Source of the DNA: a virus
Taxonomy: Duplodnaviria; Heunggongvirae; Uroviricota; Caudoviricetes
DNA: 21,552 bases
Strand: one strand, 5' to 3'
IMG/VR virus record: IMGVR_UViG_2718218127_000003
The position numbers were made by a program, and so were the translations under genes. Below the pieces are notes generated by a model, which was not told the origin of the DNA, did no database searches, and saw nothing but the letters and a program-made list of their open reading frames with translations. Below, one piece after another: positions 2,476 through 21,221 of the stretch. How positions within the stretch are numbered: position 1 is the first letter of the stretch; each line of letters starts with the position of its first letter.

Positions 2476-3057
2476 TTACCCTATAGGTGCTACTGGCCAT
2501 TCAATATCCGGAGCAGTTGTTGTATTAACACGGTTCAGCAACACCCGATACTTTTTCCAGGCTTCCAGCAACGAGTTTTCTTCCTCCGTTGCGATTTCCA
2601 GATCTACAGCATCCTGAAGTGGCGCAATATGCTCATTCGCTGCCTGCATCAGGCTGTTTTTTGTTTCTTCCGCCTCCCGGATCCGGAATAGTTTTTCTGC
2701 TTCTGCATCTTTCACCCAGGCTGTGCCGTTCCACTTCTGAAACTCCCCTTCCGGGGATAACCAAGTGGCATTTTCCGGTAACGGACCGAGTTCAGAAATA
2801 AATAACGCGTCGCCGGAAGCCACGTCATAAACCGTTTTACCCCGATGATCTTCAACGAGATGCCACGATGCCTCATCACTGTTGAAAACAGCCACGAAGC
2901 CTGCCGGAATATCTGGCGGTGCAATATCGGTACTGTTTGCTGGCAGACCTGTATGAGGCGGAATATATGCGTCACCTTCACCAATAAATTCATTAGTTCC
3001 GGCCAGCAGATTATAAATTTTTATGGTCCGTGGTTGTTCACTCATTCTGAATGCCAT
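2476..3057 (-). CDS. Phage tail fiber assembly protein (Tfa)
   Basis: The N-terminus [54 protein letters not shown] is characteristic of lambdoid Tfa chaperones. The ATG overlaps the stop of the upstream stf fragment (TAATG). Confidence 0.85.
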
Positions 3058-3297
3058 TATGCAAGCCTCACAATATAGTTAAATGCGATGTTTTTGACGG
3101 TGTTTTCCGCGTTACCAGCAGCGTTAACGGTGATGGTATGTCCATGTGAACCAATCGCAACGGAGTGCGTATGAGCACCAATACCGACAGTATGTGCGTG
3201 TGCACCTGCGCTTGCAGCAGTACCCGATACAGAGTGCGTATGAGCGCCTGCAGAAGAAGTGTTAACACTGTATTTAGAATAATCAGGTGATCCACTT
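3057..3297 (-). pseudogene. Side tail fiber (stf) gene, 3'-terminal remnant of about 80 codons
   Basis: My own translation of an alternative minus-strand frame gives ...[79 protein letters not shown], the (G)AHTHSV-repeat C-terminus of lambdoid side tail fibers. There is no start codon; it is fused upstream to the nu1 fragment. Confidence 0.7.
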
Positions 3298-3625
3298 CCA
3301 CCACTTCAGCGGAGTCTCTGGCATTCTTCAGTTCCTGTGCGTCGGCCTGCGCACGCGTAAGTCGATGGCGTTCGTACTCAATAGTCCCTGGCTGGAGATC
3401 TGCCTCGCTGGCCTGGCGCAGTTCTTCAACCTCCCGGCGCAGCTTTTCGTTCTCAATTTCAGCATCCCTTTCGGCATACCATTTTATAACGGCGGCAGAG
3501 TCATAAAGCACCTCATTACCCTTGCCACCGCCTCGCAGAACGGGCATTCCCTGTTCCTGCCAGTTCTGAATGGTACGGATACTCGCACCGAAAATGTCAG
3601 CCAGCTGCTTTTTGTTGACTTCCAT
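3296..3625 (-). pseudogene. nu1: Terminase small subunit Nu1, N-terminal 110 codons only
   Basis: [110 protein letters not shown] matches lambda Nu1 as I recall it. After codon 110 the frame runs into out-of-frame stf sequence (the listed 185-aa ORF is a chimera). Confidence 0.85.
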
Positions 3626-3850
3626 TGTTCATTCCACGGCCAAAAACAGAGAAAGGAAACGACAGAGGCCCAAAAGCTCGTTTTCAGCACCTGTCGTTTC
3701 CTTTCTTTTCAGGGGGTATTTTAAATAAAAACATTAAGTTACAACGAAGAAGAACGGAAATGCCTTAAACCGGAAAATTTTCATAAATAGCGAAAACCCG
3801 CGAGGTCGCCGCCCCGTAACAGCCCGGATCGCCGGAAAGGACCCGTAAAT
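3626..3850 (-). other. Lambda-type cos site (cosQ-cosN-cosB); 12-nt cohesive end at 3803-3814
   Basis: The reverse complement of 3721-3814 reads GGGCGGCGACCTCGCGGGTTTTCGCTATTTATGAAAATTTTCCGGTTTAAGGC..., which is the lambda left-end/cos sequence. The flanking CGGAAAGGACCCGT matches the lambda right end. It sits directly upstream of nu1. Confidence 0.85.
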
Positions 3851-3968
3851 GAGATGCTTTGTTGTTTTCTTGTTGGCTGTTCAACTACATGCAAGCATAT
3901 GGCATAATATTTAATTGATAATCTAATAGTTATAAAAACTTGCCCCAAAACCTTAACGGAGACTAAGA

Positions 3969-4661
3969 ATGTCCAGAGAAGGAACGTTAGATTTATTGCA
4001 AGAAGTTGAAGAAACCGTTGAAATATTAAAAGATACGCAACAAATAAAACCAGTAAAGGTTAAATCAATACTTGAAAATTTAAGAAGCGCATTAGAATAC
4101 GTTGCGAATGATAGTTATGAAAAACATACCACTAACCAATCAACCCCTCGGCCAAAAATTTATTTCCCATACGGCGAGAAAAAATTTTTAGATGCTTTCT
4201 TTATTAAAAAATTAAACTGCCAGCAACCTGAATTATCTCCATTATATGCAGTTTTTGTTTCAATCCAAGACTATCAAACTGGTAATAACTGGCTTGGAAT
4301 GATGTGTAACCTCACGAACGAAGTAAAACATAGGAAACCAATCCCATTGAGTGAAGATAGTATTGTTCGAGGAATAGATGTTAATATCAATGGGTTTGGA
4401 TTAATTAAGACAGATGCTACATCAAAAATCATTTTCAGAGATAATTTCACCAATGGACAGAGAATTGAAGACTTCACCATTGAAAATGGTAAAGTTGAAA
4501 AATCAGGGAACGGAATCCCCATCAATATTAACATAACCGAAGAGAAAAAAATAAGATTCCACGGTACAGATTATGAGGTCATTCCTTTTGTAGAGTTATG
4601 TCTAAAAGAAATAAGAGATTTTGTTAATGAAGCATATGAAATTTTAGATGCCATTGAATAA
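3969..4661 (+). CDS. Hypothetical protein, 230 aa, no recognisable domain; gene at the bor position between Rz and cos
   Basis: ATG at 3969 is preceded by GGAG with 7-nt spacing. The gene is AT-rich relative to its neighbours and lies on the strand opposite the late genes. The product is hydrophilic with no signal peptide. Confidence 0.7.
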   Translation: MSREGTLDLLQEVEETVEILKDTQQIKPVKVKSILENLRSALEYVANDSYEKHTTNQSTPRPKIYFPYGEKKFLDAFFIKKLNCQQPELSPLYAVFVSIQDYQTGNNWLGMMCNLTNEVKHRKPIPLSEDSIVRGIDVNINGFGLIKTDATSKIIFRDNFTNGQRIEDFTIENGKVEKSGNGIPININITEEKKIRFHGTDYEVIPFVELCLKEIRDFVNEAYEILDAIE

Positions 4662-4756: not shown

Positions 4757-5260
4757 TCAATTGTAATTTGATGTCCTCACCGACTCATAAACGCGCTCAC
4801 ACGTCATTCCAGCCCGGTAGCTTTCGTCAGATCGCTCAGCATAATATCGAGCTTCTTCTGTAAGGCGGCCGAGCATGTCGGCGAGCACTGCGGCGTCGGC
4901 TCCGGCTGTTTTGCTTCTGACGGCAGCGGCAAGATCTGCGGTGTGCTTTGCGGCGTCCAGGCGGGCGGCAAGCTTTGTTGCTTCGGTGCGCAGCTGGTTA
5001 ACAGTGGCAGACAGGCCAGCAGCAGTGGCAGCAGATTTAGCTGCTTGTGCTTGTGCATCTTTTACAGCCTCATCACGGGCAATTATGCGCCCTTGTTCAA
5101 TCATGCGGGCTGCGGTCTGCGCGTTCGCTGTTTGCGATGATTCCGCGCTGTCACGTTCCGCCCACTTTTTTTCCCAACCGCGGCTACACCATATATTTCC
5201 AGCGATAAACGCACTGGTCACTAGTACCGCGGCAACAATAAGCTGGGAGCACAGGCTCAC
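4757..5260 (-). CDS. Rz-like i-spanin (inner-membrane spanin)
   Basis: N-terminal TM helix [23 protein letters not shown] followed by an Ala/Gln-rich coiled coil. The GTG start overlaps the endolysin stop (GTGA). Confidence 0.7.
4804..5058 (-). CDS. Rz1-like o-spanin lipoprotein, embedded in the +1 frame of Rz
   Basis: [23 protein letters not shown] has a lipobox (LTSC) and is followed by a Pro-rich segment. The gene lies entirely inside Rz, as in lambda Rz/Rz1. Confidence 0.65.
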
Positions 5261-5790
5261 TGGTCTATCCCCCAGCAGGTTAATGCACTCTCCTGGTCAC
5301 GACGAATAACCTGACCGTAACAATTATTTGAACGAATACGGCAATCACGTCCACCGTCCTTTATCCACCAGCGAATCGCCTCGCATGCGCCTTTACGATC
5401 ACCGGCATTAAGCCGCTTATAAAACGTCGACGGAAAACACTTACCAGGGCCAATGTTATAGGGACAGAATGACGCGATACCGGCTTTCTGTGGCTCGGTC
5501 AGTGGAACTTTTATATTGCGCTCCACCCATGCCAGCGCCTTATCCCGCTCAATGGCGTTAACCTGGGCGCATTTTTCCTTCGACAGTTTCATTCCCGGAA
5601 TAACAGGTTTACCGTCCACCATCGTTGCTCCCCGACAGATGGTCCATACGCCGGAGCCATCGCGGTATGCAGTGGTGTGATTCCCCTCTTTTTCATCAAG
5701 AAACTGATCGAGAATGTCAGGTGCAGGAGCACTGGCGGCAATCAGTGCCAGAACAGCAGCCGACAGGCTGTATCTGATTTTTACGTTCAT
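5257..5790 (-). CDS. Phage endolysin (GH24 lysozyme) with an N-terminal signal-anchor (SAR-type), RrrQ-like
   Basis: [56 protein letters not shown]... matches lambdoid lysozymes of the Qin/21 type. Confidence 0.85.
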
Positions 5791-5924
5791 GGATATTTAT
5801 CAGGATTTATCGGTTTCTGAACCCTGGATATGTTAAGCATTCAGCCCGTCAGTGGTAGGACACTGGCGCTCTGGTTAAGGATTATGGGGGATGCAGGCTG
5901 GGCTACCCCATCTGAGGATTTGAT

Positions 5925-6164
5925 ATGCAAAAAGAAGTTTTTATCAATATTACAGCTGACTGCTCATCTCCTGCATCAACAGCAAAAGAAATTGAAGCTC
6001 TTAAATATATGATTACAGTAATATTTACCGTATTGGACCAGAATGAAAAAAATGGAATCATTCATCAATTAAATGAACATGTAAATAATCCATATATCAA
6101 AAGCAATCTGGAAATGTTGCTACCAATGAAAGATATTGGAAAACCAACTGAAACAAAAGGCTAA
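5925..6164 (+). CDS. Small hypothetical protein (79 aa) inserted in the lysis cassette on the opposite strand
   Basis: ATG at 5925 is preceded by GAGGA with 6-nt spacing. The gene is AT-rich and has no recognisable family. Confidence 0.45.
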   Translation: MQKEVFINITADCSSPASTAKEIEALKYMITVIFTVLDQNEKNGIIHQLNEHVNNPYIKSNLEMLLPMKDIGKPTETKG

Positions 6165-6475
6165 CAACCCGTAATCGAGTTATCTGAACTGTTAATTTTT
6201 ATGGTATACCGCGCCTCTGAACAGGGGCGCGTTTCTGGCAACAGCTCGTCCCCTTCACATAACCCGGCAGCAACATCCAGGAAGACCTGTCTGATGCTCC
6301 TTCTGGCTGCTGCCTCATAAAACTCCAGCGCGGCACCTTCAACACGGTCCAGCGAGATGTCCAGGTCAAAAATTTCACCGTCAAAGCGTTTTTTGTCCCG
6401 TAACGCTAAAGTTACCGTAACTTTATTCTCAAAATTGCGGATCCCTTTCACAATCAGTTCATAGTTTTGAGTCAT
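6161..6475 (-). CDS. YdfR-like protein (DUF1327 family) of the Qin-type lysis cassette
   Basis: MTQNYELIVKGIRNFENKVTVTLALRDKKRFDGEIFDLDISLDRVEGAALEFYEAAARRS... ATG at 6473-6475 with GGGGAGAG upstream. It sits between holin and endolysin, as ydfR does between essQ and rrrQ. Confidence 0.7.
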   Translation of the reverse strand: MTQNYELIVKGIRNFENKVTVTLALRDKKRFDGEIFDLDISLDRVEGAALEFYEAAARRSIRQVFLDVAAGLCEGDELLPETRPCSEARYTIKINSSDNSITGC

Positions 6476-6479
6476 TGAA

Positions 6480-6695
6480 TTACTCTCCCCGTGCAGCCTT
6501 GCGCTTATCTTCTTTAATCTTGAAATAAAGGTTTGTCAGGTACGTCAGCAGGCCAAATACCAAGCTACCCAGCACACCTATTGCTGCCCACTGTGAGGGC
6601 GTGACTTTATCGAGCAGCTGTAAAAACCAGTAGCCAGCACTGCCTGCGGAGGTGCCGTAGGCAATGCCCGTTGTTAACTTATCCATGGATTTCAT
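6480..6695 (-). CDS. Class II holin, phage 21 S (pinholin)-like, with a dual-start motif
   Basis: [71 protein letters not shown], 71 aa, with Met1 and Met4 (antiholin/holin starts). Strong SD GGAGGTG. Confidence 0.85.
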
Positions 6696-6888: not shown

Positions 6889-7614
6889 TCATGTCTTTTC
6901 TAAAAAAAATCTTGATGAATATTGATGGGGAGGAACACCAAAATATCTTCTGAAAACACTTACAAAATATGACGTGTTTTCATAACCGCATATCTCAGTA
7001 ACTTTTCCAACAGAATATAAATTGTAGCTTAATAACCTTTCCGCCATCACCATTCGCTCTTCAAGAATTAACTTACTAAATGATAAGCCTTCGTGCTTTA
7101 ATTTTCCTTTTAACAGACTTTCACTCAGATACAGTCTTGAAGATATATCACAAAGTCTCCATGCTGCAGATATATCCGTGTGAATAATAGCCTTAACTTT
7201 ACTTCCTAAACTATTAAGACATCCAAATAAAAAACTTTGCACTATTTTCTCTGAAGATAAGATAGCAAGACATGCAAGTGATATTTGATTTCTAACAAAA
7301 TCCACAGTTCTGCCATCACAATTCAAGCATGCAATCAAGTTCTTTAACAATGAAAAATCTTCACATTCCACCATCAAGTATGCCGGATAAAACCTTCTTA
7401 CAGAAAAAGGTGAGAGTGTGTTGCTTTTAAAGAAATCATTAACTGTTTTCTCTTCAACATCTACGATCATTGCATGATCTATATTTGATGAAAAAAAATC
7501 TTTTAAATTGTAATCAATGAGAACAGCACTTCCTTTTTTAAATAAAATATCTTCTTTACCAATTCGGACATCAAACGAGTTCAACACCAAAATGATAGAA
7601 CATATGTATGGCAT
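6889..7614 (-). CDS. AraC/XylS-family transcriptional regulator, AppY/EnvY-like (241 aa from the ATG); paralog of 228..971
   Basis: ...WRLCDISSRLYLSESLLKGKLKHEGLSFSKLILEERMVMAERLL...CGYENTSYFVSVFRRYFGVPPHQYS. ATG at 7612-7614 is preceded by AGGTGG. The gene and its 350-bp upstream region are AT-rich. Confidence 0.8.
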   Translation of the reverse strand: MPYICSIILVLNSFDVRIGKEDILFKKGSAVLIDYNLKDFFSSNIDHAMIVDVEEKTVNDFFKSNTLSPFSVRRFYPAYLMVECEDFSLLKNLIACLNCDGRTVDFVRNQISLACLAILSSEKIVQSFLFGCLNSLGSKVKAIIHTDISAAWRLCDISSRLYLSESLLKGKLKHEGLSFSKLILEERMVMAERLLSYNLYSVGKVTEICGYENTSYFVSVFRRYFGVPPHQYSSRFFLEKT

Positions 7615-7965
7615 ATTATCCACCTGATATCATTGGGGTTACACCAGGTAAGTATAGGTGGAAAATCAATATTCGCCAGTTCAACAATAAGGAAAATCTC
7701 ATTGCATCACAAGTATAAAATTATGTATTTAACTCACAAAGACAAATTATTAAACCAATCTGTTATATTATATATAGCTGCGTGGAATCATAATATTATA
7801 TATTTTGACTGGCATGTTTACCAACTTTAAGTTGCATCTCAATGGTTTCTTCAGCGTAAACAGAGTTTTTATACAAACTGACACTCTGGGTATCATAGTG
7901 TAGTTTTTACGATTGTAAATATCCTGCATGCAGGAACTCATCCTTTTGGATGATATCGCATACAA

Positions 7966-8925
7966 TTAATTTACCATCAGTCTTAGAGCCAGTTCGTCCG
8001 GATAGGGATCGAAGTAATTCTGTGTAAGCAAGTAATCATTAGGATACTCACCCAGATAATGCTTCAGCAGAGTCAACGGCGCAAGAAGAGGTAATGTGCC
8101 AGAACGATAGTTAAGTATAACCTCGCTCAACTCTTTACGCTGGCGTGTACTTAAGTAGTTACTAAAATACCCCTGTATATGCATCAGCACATTCGTGTGA
8201 TTTTTACGTGATGCAGGTTTTCTGAGAATCGCCATCAGCTTATCACGATACACCTCAAAGTATGATTCAAGGTCCGCCCACTCGTGTATTGCAGCCACAA
8301 ATGGTCCCATATCTTTATAGCCTGCCTGACTATGCGCCAACAACTGAAGCTTATAACGACTATGAAAAGCTAATAACTCTCTTCTTGATAATTTCTCCTT
8401 GTAAAGGTGATTGAGCTCATGCAAAGCAAAAACTCTTTCAACAAAATTCTCACGAAGCACTGGATCATGTAATCGCCCATCCTCTTCAACCGGTAGCCAG
8501 GAAAACTTTTCCATCAAAGTGCTCGTAAATAGTCCCACTCCATCTTTACGACCTCGATTACCATTTTCATCATAGACACGCACGCGCTCCATGCCACAGC
8601 TGGGAGATTTAGCACAAACCACAAACCCCGATACATCCTTTAATTTGTCCATATAAGAACGACTAAACTCTGTCATTCTCTCTGTCACATCCTCATTCTG
8701 GTCGTGGCTGAAACACATCCGAATATTTCCTTGCGTCGAGCGCACAAGACGTAGAGCAGGACGCGGAACTGGCAGCCCTATAGCCATTTCCGGACATACT
8801 GGTCTGAATGTTACCCATTCCACTAATTTGTCCATTAAAAAGTCAGCTCTTTTGTGACCACCATCAAAACGAACAGCAGAACCGGCCAGACAACCGCTGA
8901 TTCCAATCACAGGTTTTTTTATCAT
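7966..8925 (-). CDS. YbgA-family protein: N-terminal DUF523 (TudS-like, Cys-rich) fused to C-terminal DUF1722
   Basis: MIKKPVIGISGCLAGSAVRFDGGHK...PVCPEM...VVCAKSPSCGME carries the conserved cysteines and SPSCG motif of the DUF523/thiouracil-desulfidase family, with a helical C-terminal half. Strong SD GGGGGAGG. Confidence 0.75.
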   Translation of the reverse strand: MIKKPVIGISGCLAGSAVRFDGGHKRADFLMDKLVEWVTFRPVCPEMAIGLPVPRPALRLVRSTQGNIRMCFSHDQNEDVTERMTEFSRSYMDKLKDVSGFVVCAKSPSCGMERVRVYDENGNRGRKDGVGLFTSTLMEKFSWLPVEEDGRLHDPVLRENFVERVFALHELNHLYKEKLSRRELLAFHSRYKLQLLAHSQAGYKDMGPFVAAIHEWADLESYFEVYRDKLMAILRKPASRKNHTNVLMHIQGYFSNYLSTRQRKELSEVILNYRSGTLPLLAPLTLLKHYLGEYPNDYLLTQNYFDPYPDELALRLMVN

Positions 8926-9117: not shown

Positions 9118-9642
9118 ATGAAGTTATGGCCTGTGTTGACTGGCATTGCACTCTCTTTCACTCTTATAGCATGTAAGGCCCCGACACCACCTAAAGGTGT
9201 GCAGCCGATTACAAATTTTGACGCCAACCGCTACCTCGGAAAGTGGTATGAAATAGCTCGCCTCGAGAACCGGTTCGAACGTGGTCTGGAACAGGTCAGC
9301 GCTACTTATGGAAAACGGAACGACGGAGGGATTCGTGTACTTAACCGTGGATACGATCCAACGAAAAATAAATGGAGCGAGAGCGAAGGTAAAGCATACT
9401 TTACTGGAGATACTAAAACTGCAGCGTTGAAGGTTTCGTTTTTTGGCCCCTTCTATGGTGGCTATAATGTAATCAAACTGGATGATGAGTATAAGTATGC
9501 TCTTGTCAGTGGTCCGAACAGAGAATACCTATGGATTCTGGCAAGGACCCCAACTATTCCAGATAAAGTAAAAGCAGACTATGTGCGAACCGCTCAAAAG
9601 TTGGGATTCAATGTCAATGAATTATTATGGGTTAAACAATAA
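9118..9642 (+). CDS. blc: Outer-membrane lipocalin lipoprotein, Blc family (paralog-like, prophage-borne)
   Basis: Lipoprotein signal MKLWPVLTGIALSFTLIAC, then ...NFDANRYLGKWYEIARLENRFERGLEQV...GKAYFTG...LKVSFFGPFYGGYNVI...YLWILARTP..., the bacterial lipocalin signature. Confidence 0.85.
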   Translation: MKLWPVLTGIALSFTLIACKAPTPPKGVQPITNFDANRYLGKWYEIARLENRFERGLEQVSATYGKRNDGGIRVLNRGYDPTKNKWSESEGKAYFTGDTKTAALKVSFFGPFYGGYNVIKLDDEYKYALVSGPNREYLWILARTPTIPDKVKADYVRTAQKLGFNVNELLWVKQ

Positions 9643-17475: not shown

Positions 17476-17497
17476 GATGGCTTAAAGAGAGGTGCCC

Positions 17498-17748
17498 ATG
17501 AGCGGTAAGCGTTATCCCGAAGAGTTTAAAACTGAAGCAGTCAAACAGGTTGTTGATCGCGGTTATTCTGTTGCCAGCGTTGCAACACGTCTCGATATCA
17601 CCACCCACAGCCTTTATGCCTGGATAAAGAAGTACGGTCCGGATTCTTCCACTAATAAAGAACAGTCAGATGCTCAGGCCGAGATCCGCCGTCTCCAGAA
17701 AGAGCTGAAACGGGTTACCGACGAACGGGACATATTAAAAAAAGCCGC
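17498..17748 (+). pseudogene. IS3-family OrfA (HTH), interrupted by IS30; the last 9 codons resume at 18972-18999
   Basis: MSGKRYPEEFKTEAVKQVVDRGYSVASVATRLDITTHSLYAWIKKYG...ILKKAA, then after IS30 AYFAKLSD*. Confidence 0.8.
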
Positions 17749-18969
17749 TGTAGATTCAATTGGTCAACGCAACAGTTATGTGAAAACATGGGGTTGCGGA
17801 GGTTTTTTGAATGAGACGAACATTTACAGCAGAGGAAAAAGCCTCTGTTTTTGAACTATGGAAGAACGGAACAGGCTTCAGTGAAATAGCGAATATCCTG
17901 GGTTCAAAACCCGGAACGATCTTCACTATGTTAAGGGATACTGGCGGCATAAAACCCCATGAGCGTAAGCGGGCTGTAGCTCACCTGACACTGTCTGAGC
18001 GCGAGGAGATACGAGCTGGTTTGTCAGCCAAAATGAGCATTCGTGCGATAGCTACTGCGCTGAATCGCAGTCCTTCGACGATCTCACGTGAAGTTCAGCG
18101 TAATCGGGGCAGACGCTATTACAAAGCTGTTGATGCTAATAACCGAGCCAACAGAATGGCGAAAAGGCCAAAACCGTGCTTACTGGATCAAAATTTACCA
18201 TTGCGAAAGCTTGTTCTGGAAAAGCTGGAGATGAAATGGTCTCCAGAGCAAATATCAGGATGGTTAAGGCGAACAAAACCACGTCAAAAAACGCTGCGAA
18301 TATCACCTGAGACAATTTATAAAACGCTGTACTTTCGTAGCCGTGAAGCGCTACACCACCTGAATATACAGCATCTGCGACGGTCGCATAGCCTTCGCCA
18401 TGGCAGGCGTCATACCCGCAAAGGCGAAAGAGGTACGATTAACATAGTGAACGGAACACCAATTCACGAACGTTCCCGAAATATCGATAACAGACGCTCT
18501 CTGGGGCATTGGGAGGGCGATTTAGTCTCAGGTACAAAAAACTCTCATATAGCCACACTTGTAGACCGAAAATCACGTTATACGATCATCCTTAGACTCA
18601 GGGGCAAAGATTCTGTCTCAGTAAATCAGGCTCTTACCGACAAATTCCTGAGTTTACCGTCAGAACTCAGAAAATCACTGACATGGGACAGAGGAATGGA
18701 ACTGGCCAGACATCTAGAATTTACTGTCAGCACCGGCGTTAAAGTTTACTTCTGCGATCCTCAGAGTCCTTGGCAGCGGGGAACAAATGAGAACACAAAT
18801 GGGCTAATTCGGCAGTACTTTCCTAAAAAGACATGTCTTGCCCAATATACTCAACATGAACTAGATCTGGTTGCTGCTCAGCTAAACAACAGACCGAGAA
18901 AGACACTGAAGTTCAAAACACCGAAAGAGATAATTGAAAGGGGTGTTGCATTGACAGATTGAATCTACA
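17749..18969 (+). mobile_element. IS30, complete (1221 bp) with a 2-bp GC target duplication
   Basis: Ends TGTAGATTCAATTGGTCAACGC... and ...GACAGATTGAATCTACA. GC is present on both flanks. Confidence 0.9.
17811..18962 (+). CDS. insI: IS30 transposase (383 aa)
   Basis: MRRTFTAEEKASVFELWKNGTGFSEIANILGSKPGTIFTMLRDTGG... through the DDE domain to the IS30 end. Confidence 0.9.
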   Translation: MRRTFTAEEKASVFELWKNGTGFSEIANILGSKPGTIFTMLRDTGGIKPHERKRAVAHLTLSEREEIRAGLSAKMSIRAIATALNRSPSTISREVQRNRGRRYYKAVDANNRANRMAKRPKPCLLDQNLPLRKLVLEKLEMKWSPEQISGWLRRTKPRQKTLRISPETIYKTLYFRSREALHHLNIQHLRRSHSLRHGRRHTRKGERGTINIVNGTPIHERSRNIDNRRSLGHWEGDLVSGTKNSHIATLVDRKSRYTIILRLRGKDSVSVNQALTDKFLSLPSELRKSLTWDRGMELARHLEFTVSTGVKVYFCDPQSPWQRGTNENTNGLIRQYFPKKTCLAQYTQHELDLVAAQLNNRPRKTLKFKTPKEIIERGVALTD

Positions 18970-19055
18970 GCGGCGTACTTCGCAAAGCTGTCCGACTGAG
19001 GTACGCCTTTATCCGTGACAACTCCTGTTGCTGGCCTGTTCGCCTGCTCTGTCGG

Positions 19056-19868
19056 GTGCTGGATGTTCATCCCAGTGGTTTTTACGCCTGGCTTCAGCAG
19101 CCGCATTCACAACGCCATCAGGCAGACCTGAGACTGACAGGACAGATTAAACAGTTCTGGCTGGAATCGGGATGCGTCTATGGTTATCGCAAAATCCATC
19201 TGGATTTGCGTGACAGCGGGCAACAGTGCGGAGTAAACAGAGTCTGGAGACTGATGAAACGTGTCGGAATAAAGGCTCAGGTCGGATACCGAAGCCCGCG
19301 GGCACGTAAAGGCGAGGCCAGTATCGTGTCACCCAACAGGCTCCAGCGACAGTTCAATCCGGATGCTCCTGATGAGCGTTGGGTAACGGACATAACCTAC
19401 ATCAGGACCCACGAAGGCTGGCTGTATCTTGCCGTTGTTGTTGATCTGTTCTCACGCAAAATTATCGGCTGGTCCATGCAATCCCGGATGACAAAGGACA
19501 TTGTCCTGAACGCACTGCTGATGGCTGTATGGCGGCGTAATCCCGAAAAACAGGTGCTGGTTCATTCGGATCAGGGCAGTCAGTACACAAGCCATGAGTG
19601 GCAGTCGTTCCTGAAATCACACGGCCTGGAGGGTAGCATGAGCCGTCGCGGTAACTGCCATGATAATGCGGTTGCAGAAAGTTTTTTCCAGTTGTTGAAA
19701 CGTGAACGGATAAAGAAAAAGATCTACGGAACGCGGGAAGAAGCCCGCAGTGATATTTTTGATTACATCGAAATGTTTTATAACAGTAAGCGTCGGCATG
19801 GTTCTAGCGAACAGATGTCACCGACAGAATATGAAAACCAGTATTATCAACGGCTCGGAAGTGTCTAG
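19056..19868 (+). CDS. IS3-family OrfB transposase (rve/DDE domain); the 5' part overlaps orfA and is normally reached by a -1 frameshift
   Basis: ...WVTDITYIRTHEGWLYLAVVVDLFSRKIIGWSM...LVHSDQGSQYTS...GNCHDNAVAESFF... Confidence 0.85.
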   Translation: MLDVHPSGFYAWLQQPHSQRHQADLRLTGQIKQFWLESGCVYGYRKIHLDLRDSGQQCGVNRVWRLMKRVGIKAQVGYRSPRARKGEASIVSPNRLQRQFNPDAPDERWVTDITYIRTHEGWLYLAVVVDLFSRKIIGWSMQSRMTKDIVLNALLMAVWRRNPEKQVLVHSDQGSQYTSHEWQSFLKSHGLEGSMSRRGNCHDNAVAESFFQLLKRERIKKKIYGTREEARSDIFDYIEMFYNSKRRHGSSEQMSPTEYENQYYQRLGSV

Positions 19869-19964: not shown

Positions 19965-21221
19965 TTACTGATAGTCATCAGCAAGTCCGCTACTAAATAA
20001 CGTTTCTGCATTTTCAGCGGTAGCAACAGCATCCTGCACATCCTGCCGTTTCAAATCTAACACTCGTAATTTACCCTTTACTTCGGCGACAGATTCGATT
20101 CGCCTGTAAGCATCAGAATGATGTTCGGCATATAGCGCAAGTCCTTCCAGTTTGGGCAAAGCATCAGCCAGATGTAGGCTATGTGGATCTACCAGGTCCA
20201 CAACCATTTTGCCATCCTGTTCGGCAAAGAACAGGAAATCGGGACGAACAATCTTGTACTGTTCAGCTTCAACATAAGCGATTCCCAGTGACGACTGCCC
20301 TGTGTACTGTGGATTACGATACCAGAAAGCAAATCCTTCACGTTTGGTTTCGATCTCAAAAACCTTGGTTTCCCAATGGTTCAACAGAGCCGGATAGTTC
20401 CCGCTTTCGTCACACAACAAATGGTGTTTCCAGACTGGAAGGTCAGCTTCCTTTTCACCTTCACGCACCCTGGTCATTTCAAACTTGTTCGCCGGCCTGA
20501 CCAGATCCACATCCTGCGGTTCGGTACTCATTTCGACGATTTGACGATAGGCCTCTTTACGCTCATCTTTCAACGACTTGATTTGCGGTGTGTACTCGGC
20601 CAGCCACGCCTTCGCCAGTCTATCGGCCTCGCCATCGAAGTAATCCTGCACCTCCATCACCAGCCCCATGCCAGCAACGGTAACACGAGCCTCCATGATT
20701 GCTTCCAGATATTCCTCTGCATCCTCTTCTCGATCCGCAACCTTATCGGCCAGATATTCGACATAGGTACGTGAAACATCCGGGCTGAAAATTCGGGCTG
20801 CACGCCGGTAGGCGTCATCAATCACCGTTACGTCCGCCTCCTCCCAGAATTCGTTGAAGGTCATTGCTTTGTTCTTGAGGCTGGCAACCACAGCCTTACC
20901 ATCTACGACGAGCACTGCATTGCGTTTGTTTTTGATTTTCTCGGCATTTTCTATCTGGAACTTGTCCAGAACAGCGTGCAAAGCAGCATGGGCTTTCCTG
21001 ACTGCCCCATCAAGAATACCGTCATCAACCAGTTCCTGTGCCAGCGCGGTCAGACGTCTGGCGGGTCTGGCTCCTTTCTGTGGTCGGGTTTGCGAAGGTA
21101 GCGCTTCAAATGCTTCCCATACTTCAGCTGAAGCAGCCGGGTTAGGTTTCATCTCCACAGGGTTAACCAGGATGCGTCCGCTTGGAGGAGAGGTATCATC
21201 GCCCTTAAACAAGGTATTGAC
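19965..21221 (-). pseudogene. 3' portion (at least 415 codons) of a large gene of unknown function; the 5' part is separated or removed by the IS1 insertion
   Basis: The reading frame is open right up to the IS1 left inverted repeat at 21222, where the only in-frame stop lies inside IS1. The first codon in the ORF track is TTG, with no credible start. The C-terminal region ...YKIVRPDFLFFAEQDGKMVVDLVDPHS... is faintly nuclease-like. Confidence 0.55.

Follow-up and report, generated by a model that had tools for sequence, protein, structure and literature searches.

A conserved and probably cleavable lambda-type cos site retained in a strongly degraded lambdoid prophage resembling Qin and DLP12

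Results

The prophage remnant and its genes

The window, which here means the whole stretch of 21,552 nucleotides analysed (IMG/VR virus record IMGVR_UViG_2718218127_000003, Caudoviricetes), carries a prophage whose gene order is given by the MB06022 annotation, Pfam and PHROG. The early part is composed of YfdQ, YfdP, the cI-like YmfK, a Cro-like gene and the cII-like YmfL, after which come a replication gene that is truncated and joined to a KilA-N fragment, DUF968 and Q. Downstream of Q are present the accessory genes (lipocalin, YbgA and AraC-like), the holin, YdfR, lysozyme and Rz genes, the low-GC phrog_13652 gene and the cos site, followed by a truncated nu1 (nu1') and the tail-fibre remnants stf'/tfa. 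The lambdoid order of immunity, Q, lysis, cos and nu1 is kept, and the head and tail genes are gone. The main features are listed below.

from 21277: IS1 InsA gene
19965-21212, minus strand: open reading frame of 415 amino acids, with no Pfam or PHROG match and a negligible PADLOC match only (E = 0.006)
17492-17854 and 19056-19868: orfA and orfB of an IS3-family element, split by an inserted IS30-type transposase gene (17811-18962)
9118-9642, plus strand: Blc-like lipocalin, in the accessory block between Q and the holin
7966-8925, minus strand: YbgA-type DUF523/DUF1722 protein with a 2-thiouracil desulfurase domain
6889-7623, minus strand: AraC-type regulator
4757-6695, minus strand: Qin-type lysis cassette (PHROG and MB06022 annotation), in the same order as in K-12 Qin
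6480-6695, minus strand: holin
6161-6475, minus strand: YdfR
5257-5790, minus strand: lysozyme
4757-5260, minus strand: Rz-like spanin
3969-4661, plus strand: low-GC (about 33%) gene of 230 codons, phrog_13652 (PHROG E = 1e-106), between Rz and cosQ
3296-3625, minus strand: nu1' codons 1-110, DNA-binding domain, ATG at 3625
about 3057-3295, minus strand: tail-fibre C-terminal fragment (MB06022 annotation)
2476-3057, minus strand: tail-fibre assembly gene (MB06022 annotation; Pfam Caudo_TAP, E = 6e-43)
228-980: AraC-family regulator, downstream of the tail-fibre remnants

IS remnants are present at both ends of the window, and the split IS3-family element (17492-19868) occupies the place of the phage integrase in relatives. 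No phage integrase and no excisionase are present in the window, and the replication gene is the truncated fragment only; therefore no circle or concatemer can form. With its lambdoid order, its loss of the morphogenesis genes and no capacity for autonomous excision or replication, the element is a defective lambdoid prophage of the same kind as Qin and DLP12.

The phrog_13652 gene opposes the direction of late transcription and adjoins the end of the lambda homology, 5 bp upstream of cosQ. It belongs to no Pfam family, its one PADLOC match is far too weak to count, and its protein gave no tblastn match in 50,697 phage records. The junction of this gene with cos is also present in the apparently intact prophages of the E. 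coli genomes TK3889 and ETEC1738, where the gene is whole and lies beside full packaging genes; in MB06022 it is broken by IS1 and IS3. The PADLOC matches of the accessory genes were discounted, their E values of about 0.006-0.007 being far too weak.

On the other side of cos, positions 1186-2475 (approximately 1.3 kb), which separate the tail-fibre assembly gene from the AraC-family regulator, contain no open reading frame of at least 70 amino acids and are mostly AT-rich, with a GC content of 29-36% over about 1600-2475 and of 41-44% around 1200-1800. Inside the tail-fibre assembly gene, positions 2516-2714 on the minus strand match the Rfam family IS009 (RF02111) with 212 bits, well over the gathering score.

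The closest near-complete relative is a prophage at the argU site of strain 2013C-4282, which carries the same Q-lipocalin-YbgA-AraC-holin block; in addition intD is present, the replication region is complete, and nu1, A and the head and tail genes are found as well. This prophage apparently represents the ancestral form, and the window element is therefore a decayed copy of its phage type. The blc-like gene is an ordinary phage accessory gene, already borne by apparently intact relatives. The remnant itself is found between paoD and fbpC/mmuM, an interval which we take to be the position of the CP4-6 region in K-12. That the remnant is at pao-fbpC/mmuM, and its closest near-complete relative at argU, the DLP12 site, suggests either a relocation or a separate integration followed by IS-mediated decay.

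The cos site

In a pairwise alignment with lambda (NC_001416), window positions 3849-3296 on the minus strand correspond to lambda 48468-48502 plus 1-520 in one uninterrupted block of 97% identity, with 15 mismatches in 554 aligned bases and one 1-bp deletion at lambda 138. A BLAST search of the 50,697 phage records gave E = 0 over 3296-3852, a result well outside chance. The stretch 3626-3850, from the nu1 start codon to the end of the homology, contains 12 of the substitutions and the 1-bp deletion, nearly all of them in spacers. The subsites are listed below, with boundaries taken from Murialdo & Feiss 2022 (PMC9026076), Feiss et al. 2015 (PMC4669245) and Sippy et al. 2016 (PMC4856287).

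3838-3844, minus strand: cosQ, GGGTCCT, packaging-termination element (PMC4669245), 7/7 identical to lambda 48473-48479 and, as there, 23 bp from the nick
3821-3824, minus strand: 4-bp variant block in the cosQ-cosN spacer, outside both subsites, ACAG in lambda (48493-96) and GGCT in the window
3801-3816, minus strand: cosN, composed of the 12-nt cohesive end GGGCGGCGACCT (3803-3814) and 2 bp on each flank, 16/16 identical to lambda
3765-3797, minus strand: I2 segment (lambda bp 18-50), 33/33
3750-3765, minus strand: R3, critical binding site of TerS (Nu1) (lambda bp 50-65), 15/16, the sole change being G54A (window 3761)
3724-3741, minus strand: I1 region, candidate, where the IHF core consensus is best matched (lambda bp 74-91), unchanged from lambda
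3691-3706, plus strand: R2, TerS binding site (lambda bp 109-124) in the opposite orientation to R3 and R1, 16/16
3650-3665, minus strand: R1, accessory TerS site (lambda bp 151-166), 16/16

The cosN at 3801-3816 is the only exact match in the window. Two cosN-like matches with two mismatches each, at 4963 and 17074 on the other strand, were considered as a possible second cos and rejected; in a shuffle control at least three such matches were seen in 2 of 100 shuffles, the mean being 0.66. The first 53 bp of lambda are unchanged and free of indels, so that the cosN-R3 spacing is exact, and the spacing between cosQ and cosN is free of indels as well. This spacing from cosN to R3 is strict in lambda, where a deletion of 3 bp is already severe (PMC9026076, PMC4856287), and the intervening I2 segment serves a required post-recognition step of packaging initiation (PMC4856287). 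The bases of R3 contacted by TerS have been defined by NMR as 55-63, with 56, 58 and 59 genetically critical (PMC9026076). All of these are the same in the window as in lambda, and G54A lies outside them.

The whole set of elements of a complex cos of lambda type is therefore found in the sequence, that is cosQ, cosN, I2 with its spacing, the R3 contacts, a candidate I1, an inverted R2 and R1. The original prediction had placed an intact lambda-type cos at 3626-3850, and this is borne out, with coordinates exact to the base. It had also named mutations in the R sites or the IHF site of cosB as evidence that would speak against it; R2, R1 and the IHF core candidates are unchanged, and the one change is that in R3, outside the contact bases.

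Differences from lambda affect one of the 121 positions in named subsites and 12 of the 104 spacer positions (Fisher p = 7e-4; with the 4-bp block taken as a single event, p = 0.013). A contrast of this sort is what purifying selection leaves on subsites, and most likely it dates from the time when the lineage was an active phage.

Variants of the cos site in other phages and prophages

In an alignment with deposited phage genomes, lambda relatives commonly carry 48486C, 73G, 102C, 134A, the deletion at 138, 145G and 176G; the 1-bp deletion at lambda 138 is found in phage DE3 too. The R3 variant 54A is common to the window, phage PhiR42_1 and K-12 Qin, and the cosB of Qin is the same as that of the window at every variant position except lambda-72. 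Judging from its occurrence in PhiR42_1 and Qin, G54A is presumably harmless. The PhiR phages are taken to be viable because their records are those of complete phage genomes and name a host; we found no publication documenting them.

The GGCT block of the cosQ-cosN spacer is also present in one IMG/VR contig encoding a full-length Nu1 (181 amino acids) and gpA (641 amino acids), and together with the same cosQ-upstream junction in the apparently intact prophage of strain TK3889, which has genes for Nu1, TerL, portal, protease, decoration and capsid proteins. Because it is found beside intact terminase genes, the block appears to be neutral. An exact-match scan for the cosQ-spacer-cosN variant of the window gave no match in genome contigs and one in a viral contig. 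In TK3889 the cosQ and cosB are of lambda type and the cohesive end (about 7950-7962 of its locus), GGGCGGAAGGCG, is unlike lambda at bp 7-12, in keeping with reports that the right half of cosN is variable.

The remaining change, C>T at lambda-72 (window 3743), was seen in this window only among the phages and prophages compared. Together with the change at lambda 73 (window 3742), where G is frequent in phages, it lies just outside the IHF core candidates. IHF itself is dispensable for lambda, with a yield of about 30% in its absence (PMC4856287). Apart from lambda-72 C>T, each variant thus recurs in deposited phage genomes, in K-12 Qin or in prophages that appear intact. Because the named subsites are conserved and nearly all variants occur in phages or apparently intact prophages, the cos is judged to be probably functional, that is, cleavable by a terminase of lambda specificity.

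The truncated nu1 and the deletion junction

The 110 codons of nu1' encode a protein fragment with 100% amino acid identity to residues 1-110 of lambda Nu1 (Pfam Phage_Nu1, E = 1.9e-69), and its three nucleotide differences from lambda are all synonymous. The open reading frame continues to 3068 through out-of-frame tail-fibre sequence, for a total of 185 amino acids, and is annotated as a pseudogene in MB06022. No trace of gpA was detected in the window (tblastn with lambda gpA, best E = 6.2). A truncated nu1 without a gene for the terminase large subunit had been read from the sequence before, and both parts of that reading are confirmed.

One deletion most probably joined nu1 codon 110 to the tail-fibre region, removing the 3' end of nu1, the TerL gene A and the head and tail genes, and further lesions took the integrase and most of the replication module. 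The junction at nu1 codon 110 differs from that of Qin, near the 3' end of nu1 (about lambda 718), and from that of DLP12, inside A; the three deletions are therefore independent. All three start in nu1 or A, within approximately 0.3-1 kb of cos on its downstream side, and end in the tail-fibre region, and all three spare cos and the 5' end of nu1.

Packaging direction and partner cos sites

Having nicked cosN, the terminase remains with the cosB end, which it feeds into the prohead (PMC4669245). In the window cosB and nu1 are at lower coordinates than cosN, and the uptake would therefore proceed from 3802 downwards, through nu1', stf', tfa and the AraC-family gene and then towards the pao side. 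In MB06022 the DNA beyond the window on this side comprises paoDCBA, the ecp operon, fdeC, rcl and bet. The marker proposed earlier for mobilisation by helper phage, the blc-like gene (9118-9642), is on the cosQ side and so outside the DNA taken up. This gene and the other accessory genes would be packageable only as the tail end of a unit begun at another cos, 38-51 kb upstream and in the same orientation.

The size limits of the lambda capsid correspond to about 38-51 kb between cos sites. A packageable cos-to-cos unit takes two sites at this distance in the same orientation, whereas one cosN was found in the window and one cos in each of the nearest genomes. The chromosomes of MB06022 and NCTC11023, which are the closest complete genomes and distinct from the source strain, have a single lambda-type cos each by megablast, and in MB06022 no second cos is present within -59 kb or +66 kb.

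For a helper to package a passive prophage, two cos sites are required; packaging that starts at a lone prophage cos comes to a halt at the full head, and the resulting particle has no tail and is not infectious (PMC4669245). In lambda particles purified from a K-12 host, the reads map almost only to lambda and its flanks (PMC7667829), and of lateral transduction it has been stated that "cos phages do not" perform it (PMC12829572). It had been proposed that the terminase of a helper could cut and package the element. Of this, the cutting is probable, given the conserved subsites, and infectious packaging is not to be expected, with no second cos in the nearest genomes and a stall at the lone one. 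The further proposal that the cargo is mobilisable by helper phage is contradicted by the packaging direction, by the absence of a partner cos and by the lack of excision and replication functions. The cos alone should not make the genes of the element transferable.

Discussion

The reading which we prefer, and hold with good confidence, is that the window carries a retained cos of lambda specificity, passive but probably still cleavable, inside a lambdoid prophage that, like Qin and DLP12, is heavily decayed. From the sequence we infer the cleavage and its outcome as follows. During lytic growth of a phage of lambda specificity (with the terminase of lambda, 434, phi80 or N15), TerS would bind R3 and R2 across an IHF bend and TerL would nick cosN at 3803-3814. 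The end carrying cosB and nu1 would enter a prohead, with DNA taken in toward the low coordinates of the window and on into the adjacent chromosome. Without a downstream cos, packaging would stall at the full head, and the product would be a tailless, non-infectious particle.

Such an event could have three consequences. The double-strand break would leave the cosQ side unprotected, which would stimulate recombination, and by a double crossover lambdoid phages could gain the lysis genes and the accessory gene that adjoin cos. If a lambda-type prophage were present in the same orientation approximately 38-51 kb upstream, packaging begun there could furthermore be terminated by the window cos. 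The helper might also lose a small share of its proheads. A precedent for the first of these is the recombination of lambda with DLP12, which is about 100-fold above that with Qin or Rac and in which 10 of 19 junctions adjoin cos, ascribed by the authors to breaks at cos (PMC3945230).

The reading originally put forward saw in the remnant a helper-mobilisable element, in which a superinfecting lambda-like phage cuts the cos and packages the cargo, the blc-like gene included, in the manner of a cosmid or satellite. The cos does look intact and of lambda specificity, and a helper terminase does package passive prophage DNA when it is bracketed by two cos sites (PMC4669245). The nearest genomes have one such site each, however, and packaging from it heads away from the cargo; the window is without integrase, excisionase or working replication genes, and particles filled from a lone prophage cos are non-infectious (PMC4669245). 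Neither is there a redirecting protein of the Rpp type, the cosB being of the helper's own type, and the blc-like, YbgA and AraC genes already travel in the near-complete relative prophage. Mobilisation by a helper is accordingly very unlikely. The opposite reading, of a cos which resembles that of lambda but is dead, would ascribe the loss of activity to the change at lambda-72, to G54A in R3 or to the replaced sequence upstream of cosQ. It draws on the absence of C72T from all compared phages and prophages and on the end of the lambda homology just 5 bp before cosQ. Each of the three changes can be answered, since positions 72 and 73 lie outside the best IHF core matches and IHF is dispensable for lambda, with a yield of about 30% in its absence (PMC4856287), since G54A is carried by PhiR42_1 and Qin, and since the cosQ-upstream junction and GGCT stand beside full terminase, portal and capsid genes in TK3889, cosQ being in any case defined as 7 bp (PMC4669245). 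A dead cos is therefore regarded as unlikely.

A different kind of explanation would make the retention itself adaptive, with cos and Nu1(1-110) kept because they hinder incoming phages of lambda type. The Nu1 fragment, which has the DNA-binding domain and lacks the TerL-binding end, could act as a dominant negative by sitting on cosB, and terminase and proheads could be wasted on the chromosomal cos. It agrees with this that residues 1-110 are fully identical to lambda in an open reading frame of 185 amino acids, that three independent deletions (Qin, DLP12 and the window) all spared cos and the 5' end of nu1, and that initiation at a prophage cos lowers the efficiency of the helper (PMC4669245). 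Against the many genome copies of an infecting phage, on the other hand, one chromosomal cos is a negligible sink; the three synonymous differences in nu1 most likely date from the active-phage ancestry; and expression of nu1', annotated as a pseudogene in MB06022, is hypothetical. Lambda also grows well on K-12, which is the host of both Qin and DLP12. That such interference accounts for the retention is hardly credible, and just as improbable is its more elaborate form, in which cos and the 185-amino-acid open reading frame have been co-opted as an anti-packaging device. If the latter were true, late transcription reading through under the Q protein of the incoming phage would yield a TerS fragment, which would sit on R3 and R2 in the concatemers of the invader and poison the assembly of its terminase. 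The device would then be the counterpart, in a defective prophage, of the Rpp strategy of the PICIs, and could explain why cos and the 5' end of nu1 were spared in Qin, DLP12 and the window element.

Under the preferred reading of a passive and probably cleavable cos, orphan cos sites are to be expected as break points and recombination hot spots during infection by phages of lambda specificity. Phages could acquire the neighbours of such sites, which in this case are the phrog_13652 gene and the lysis cassette, and the sites alone would not be able to transfer the flanking chromosome.

Comparison with known systems

Lambda-type cos sites are found in 3981 of 5426 complete E. coli genomes (about three quarters), at 8420 places in total, when a megablast match to at least 80% of the 225 bp is counted. 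An orphan cos of this type in a defective prophage is not new, and has been known since the cryptic prophages of K-12 were described.

With the cos of lambda itself the window site shares the order cosQ-cosN-I2-R3-I1-R2-R1, the spacing, the orientation and the cohesive end, and presumably also the packaging specificity. Unlike that of lambda, it sits in a chromosome without a cognate terminase or a partner cos.

The cos-type PICIs of Gram-negative bacteria, e.g. EcCICFT073, have no morphogenesis genes, carry a lambda-like cosN and use the terminase of a helper (PMC9026076). The window element resembles them as a chromosomal element with a lambda-like cosN and no morphogenesis genes. In contrast to it, they excise and replicate, encode Rpp and have a cosB sequence of their own, whereas the cosB of the window is of the helper's own type. 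Typical of a PICI are an integrase and att sites of its own, a regulator induced by the helper (alpA or a repressor), a replication module and an Rpp protein redirecting TerS. The identification as a PICI or satellite was considered and rejected, no tyrosine integrase, primase/replicase or Rpp-like gene being present in the window and the cosB being of lambda/Qin type.

A structure built on purpose is that of the Feiss laboratory strain MF532, whose lambda imm434 prophage lacks the stretch from Nu1 to attR; this prophage has served as a routine passive terminating cos and has terminated packaging begun by the helper at an upstream cos (PMC4669245). It has in common with the window element the presence of early and late genes and of cos, followed by a deletion beginning in Nu1. 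MF532 was engineered, with a second prophage put upstream deliberately, whereas the structure in the window is natural and no upstream cos was found in the nearest genomes.

DLP12, whose cos is upstream of nohD (b0560), has the order ess-rrrD-rzpD-bor ... cos-nohD-aaaD-tfaD ... appY. As in the window, the lambda-type cos has been kept, the head and tail genes are gone, and cos is followed by tail-fibre-assembly remnants and an AraC-family regulator, which in DLP12 is appY. It differs in that nohD is complete and gene A survives in its 5' part (aaaD), that the lysis genes are of the lambda/21 type (rrrD, rzpD, borD) and that intD is still present at argU. It is a known recombination partner of lambda, with junctions clustered at cos.

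Qin, with its cos upstream of nohA (b1548), has the order ess-ydfR-rrrQ-rzpQ ... cos-nohA-stfQ-tfaQ. It differs from the window element in that its nu1 is nearly complete (breakpoint near lambda 718) and not cut at codon 110, in carrying ydfO/ynfO and not the phrog_13652 gene upstream of cosQ, in the lambda spacer ACAG as opposed to GGCT, and in its chromosomal site at ydfJ as opposed to the interval between pao and fbpC/mmuM. The two elements are alike in the type of lysis cassette (ess, ydfR, lysozyme and a DUF2514 Rz) and in a lambda-type cos followed by a nu1 homologue fused to tail-fibre genes, with the TerL, head and tail genes gone from both.
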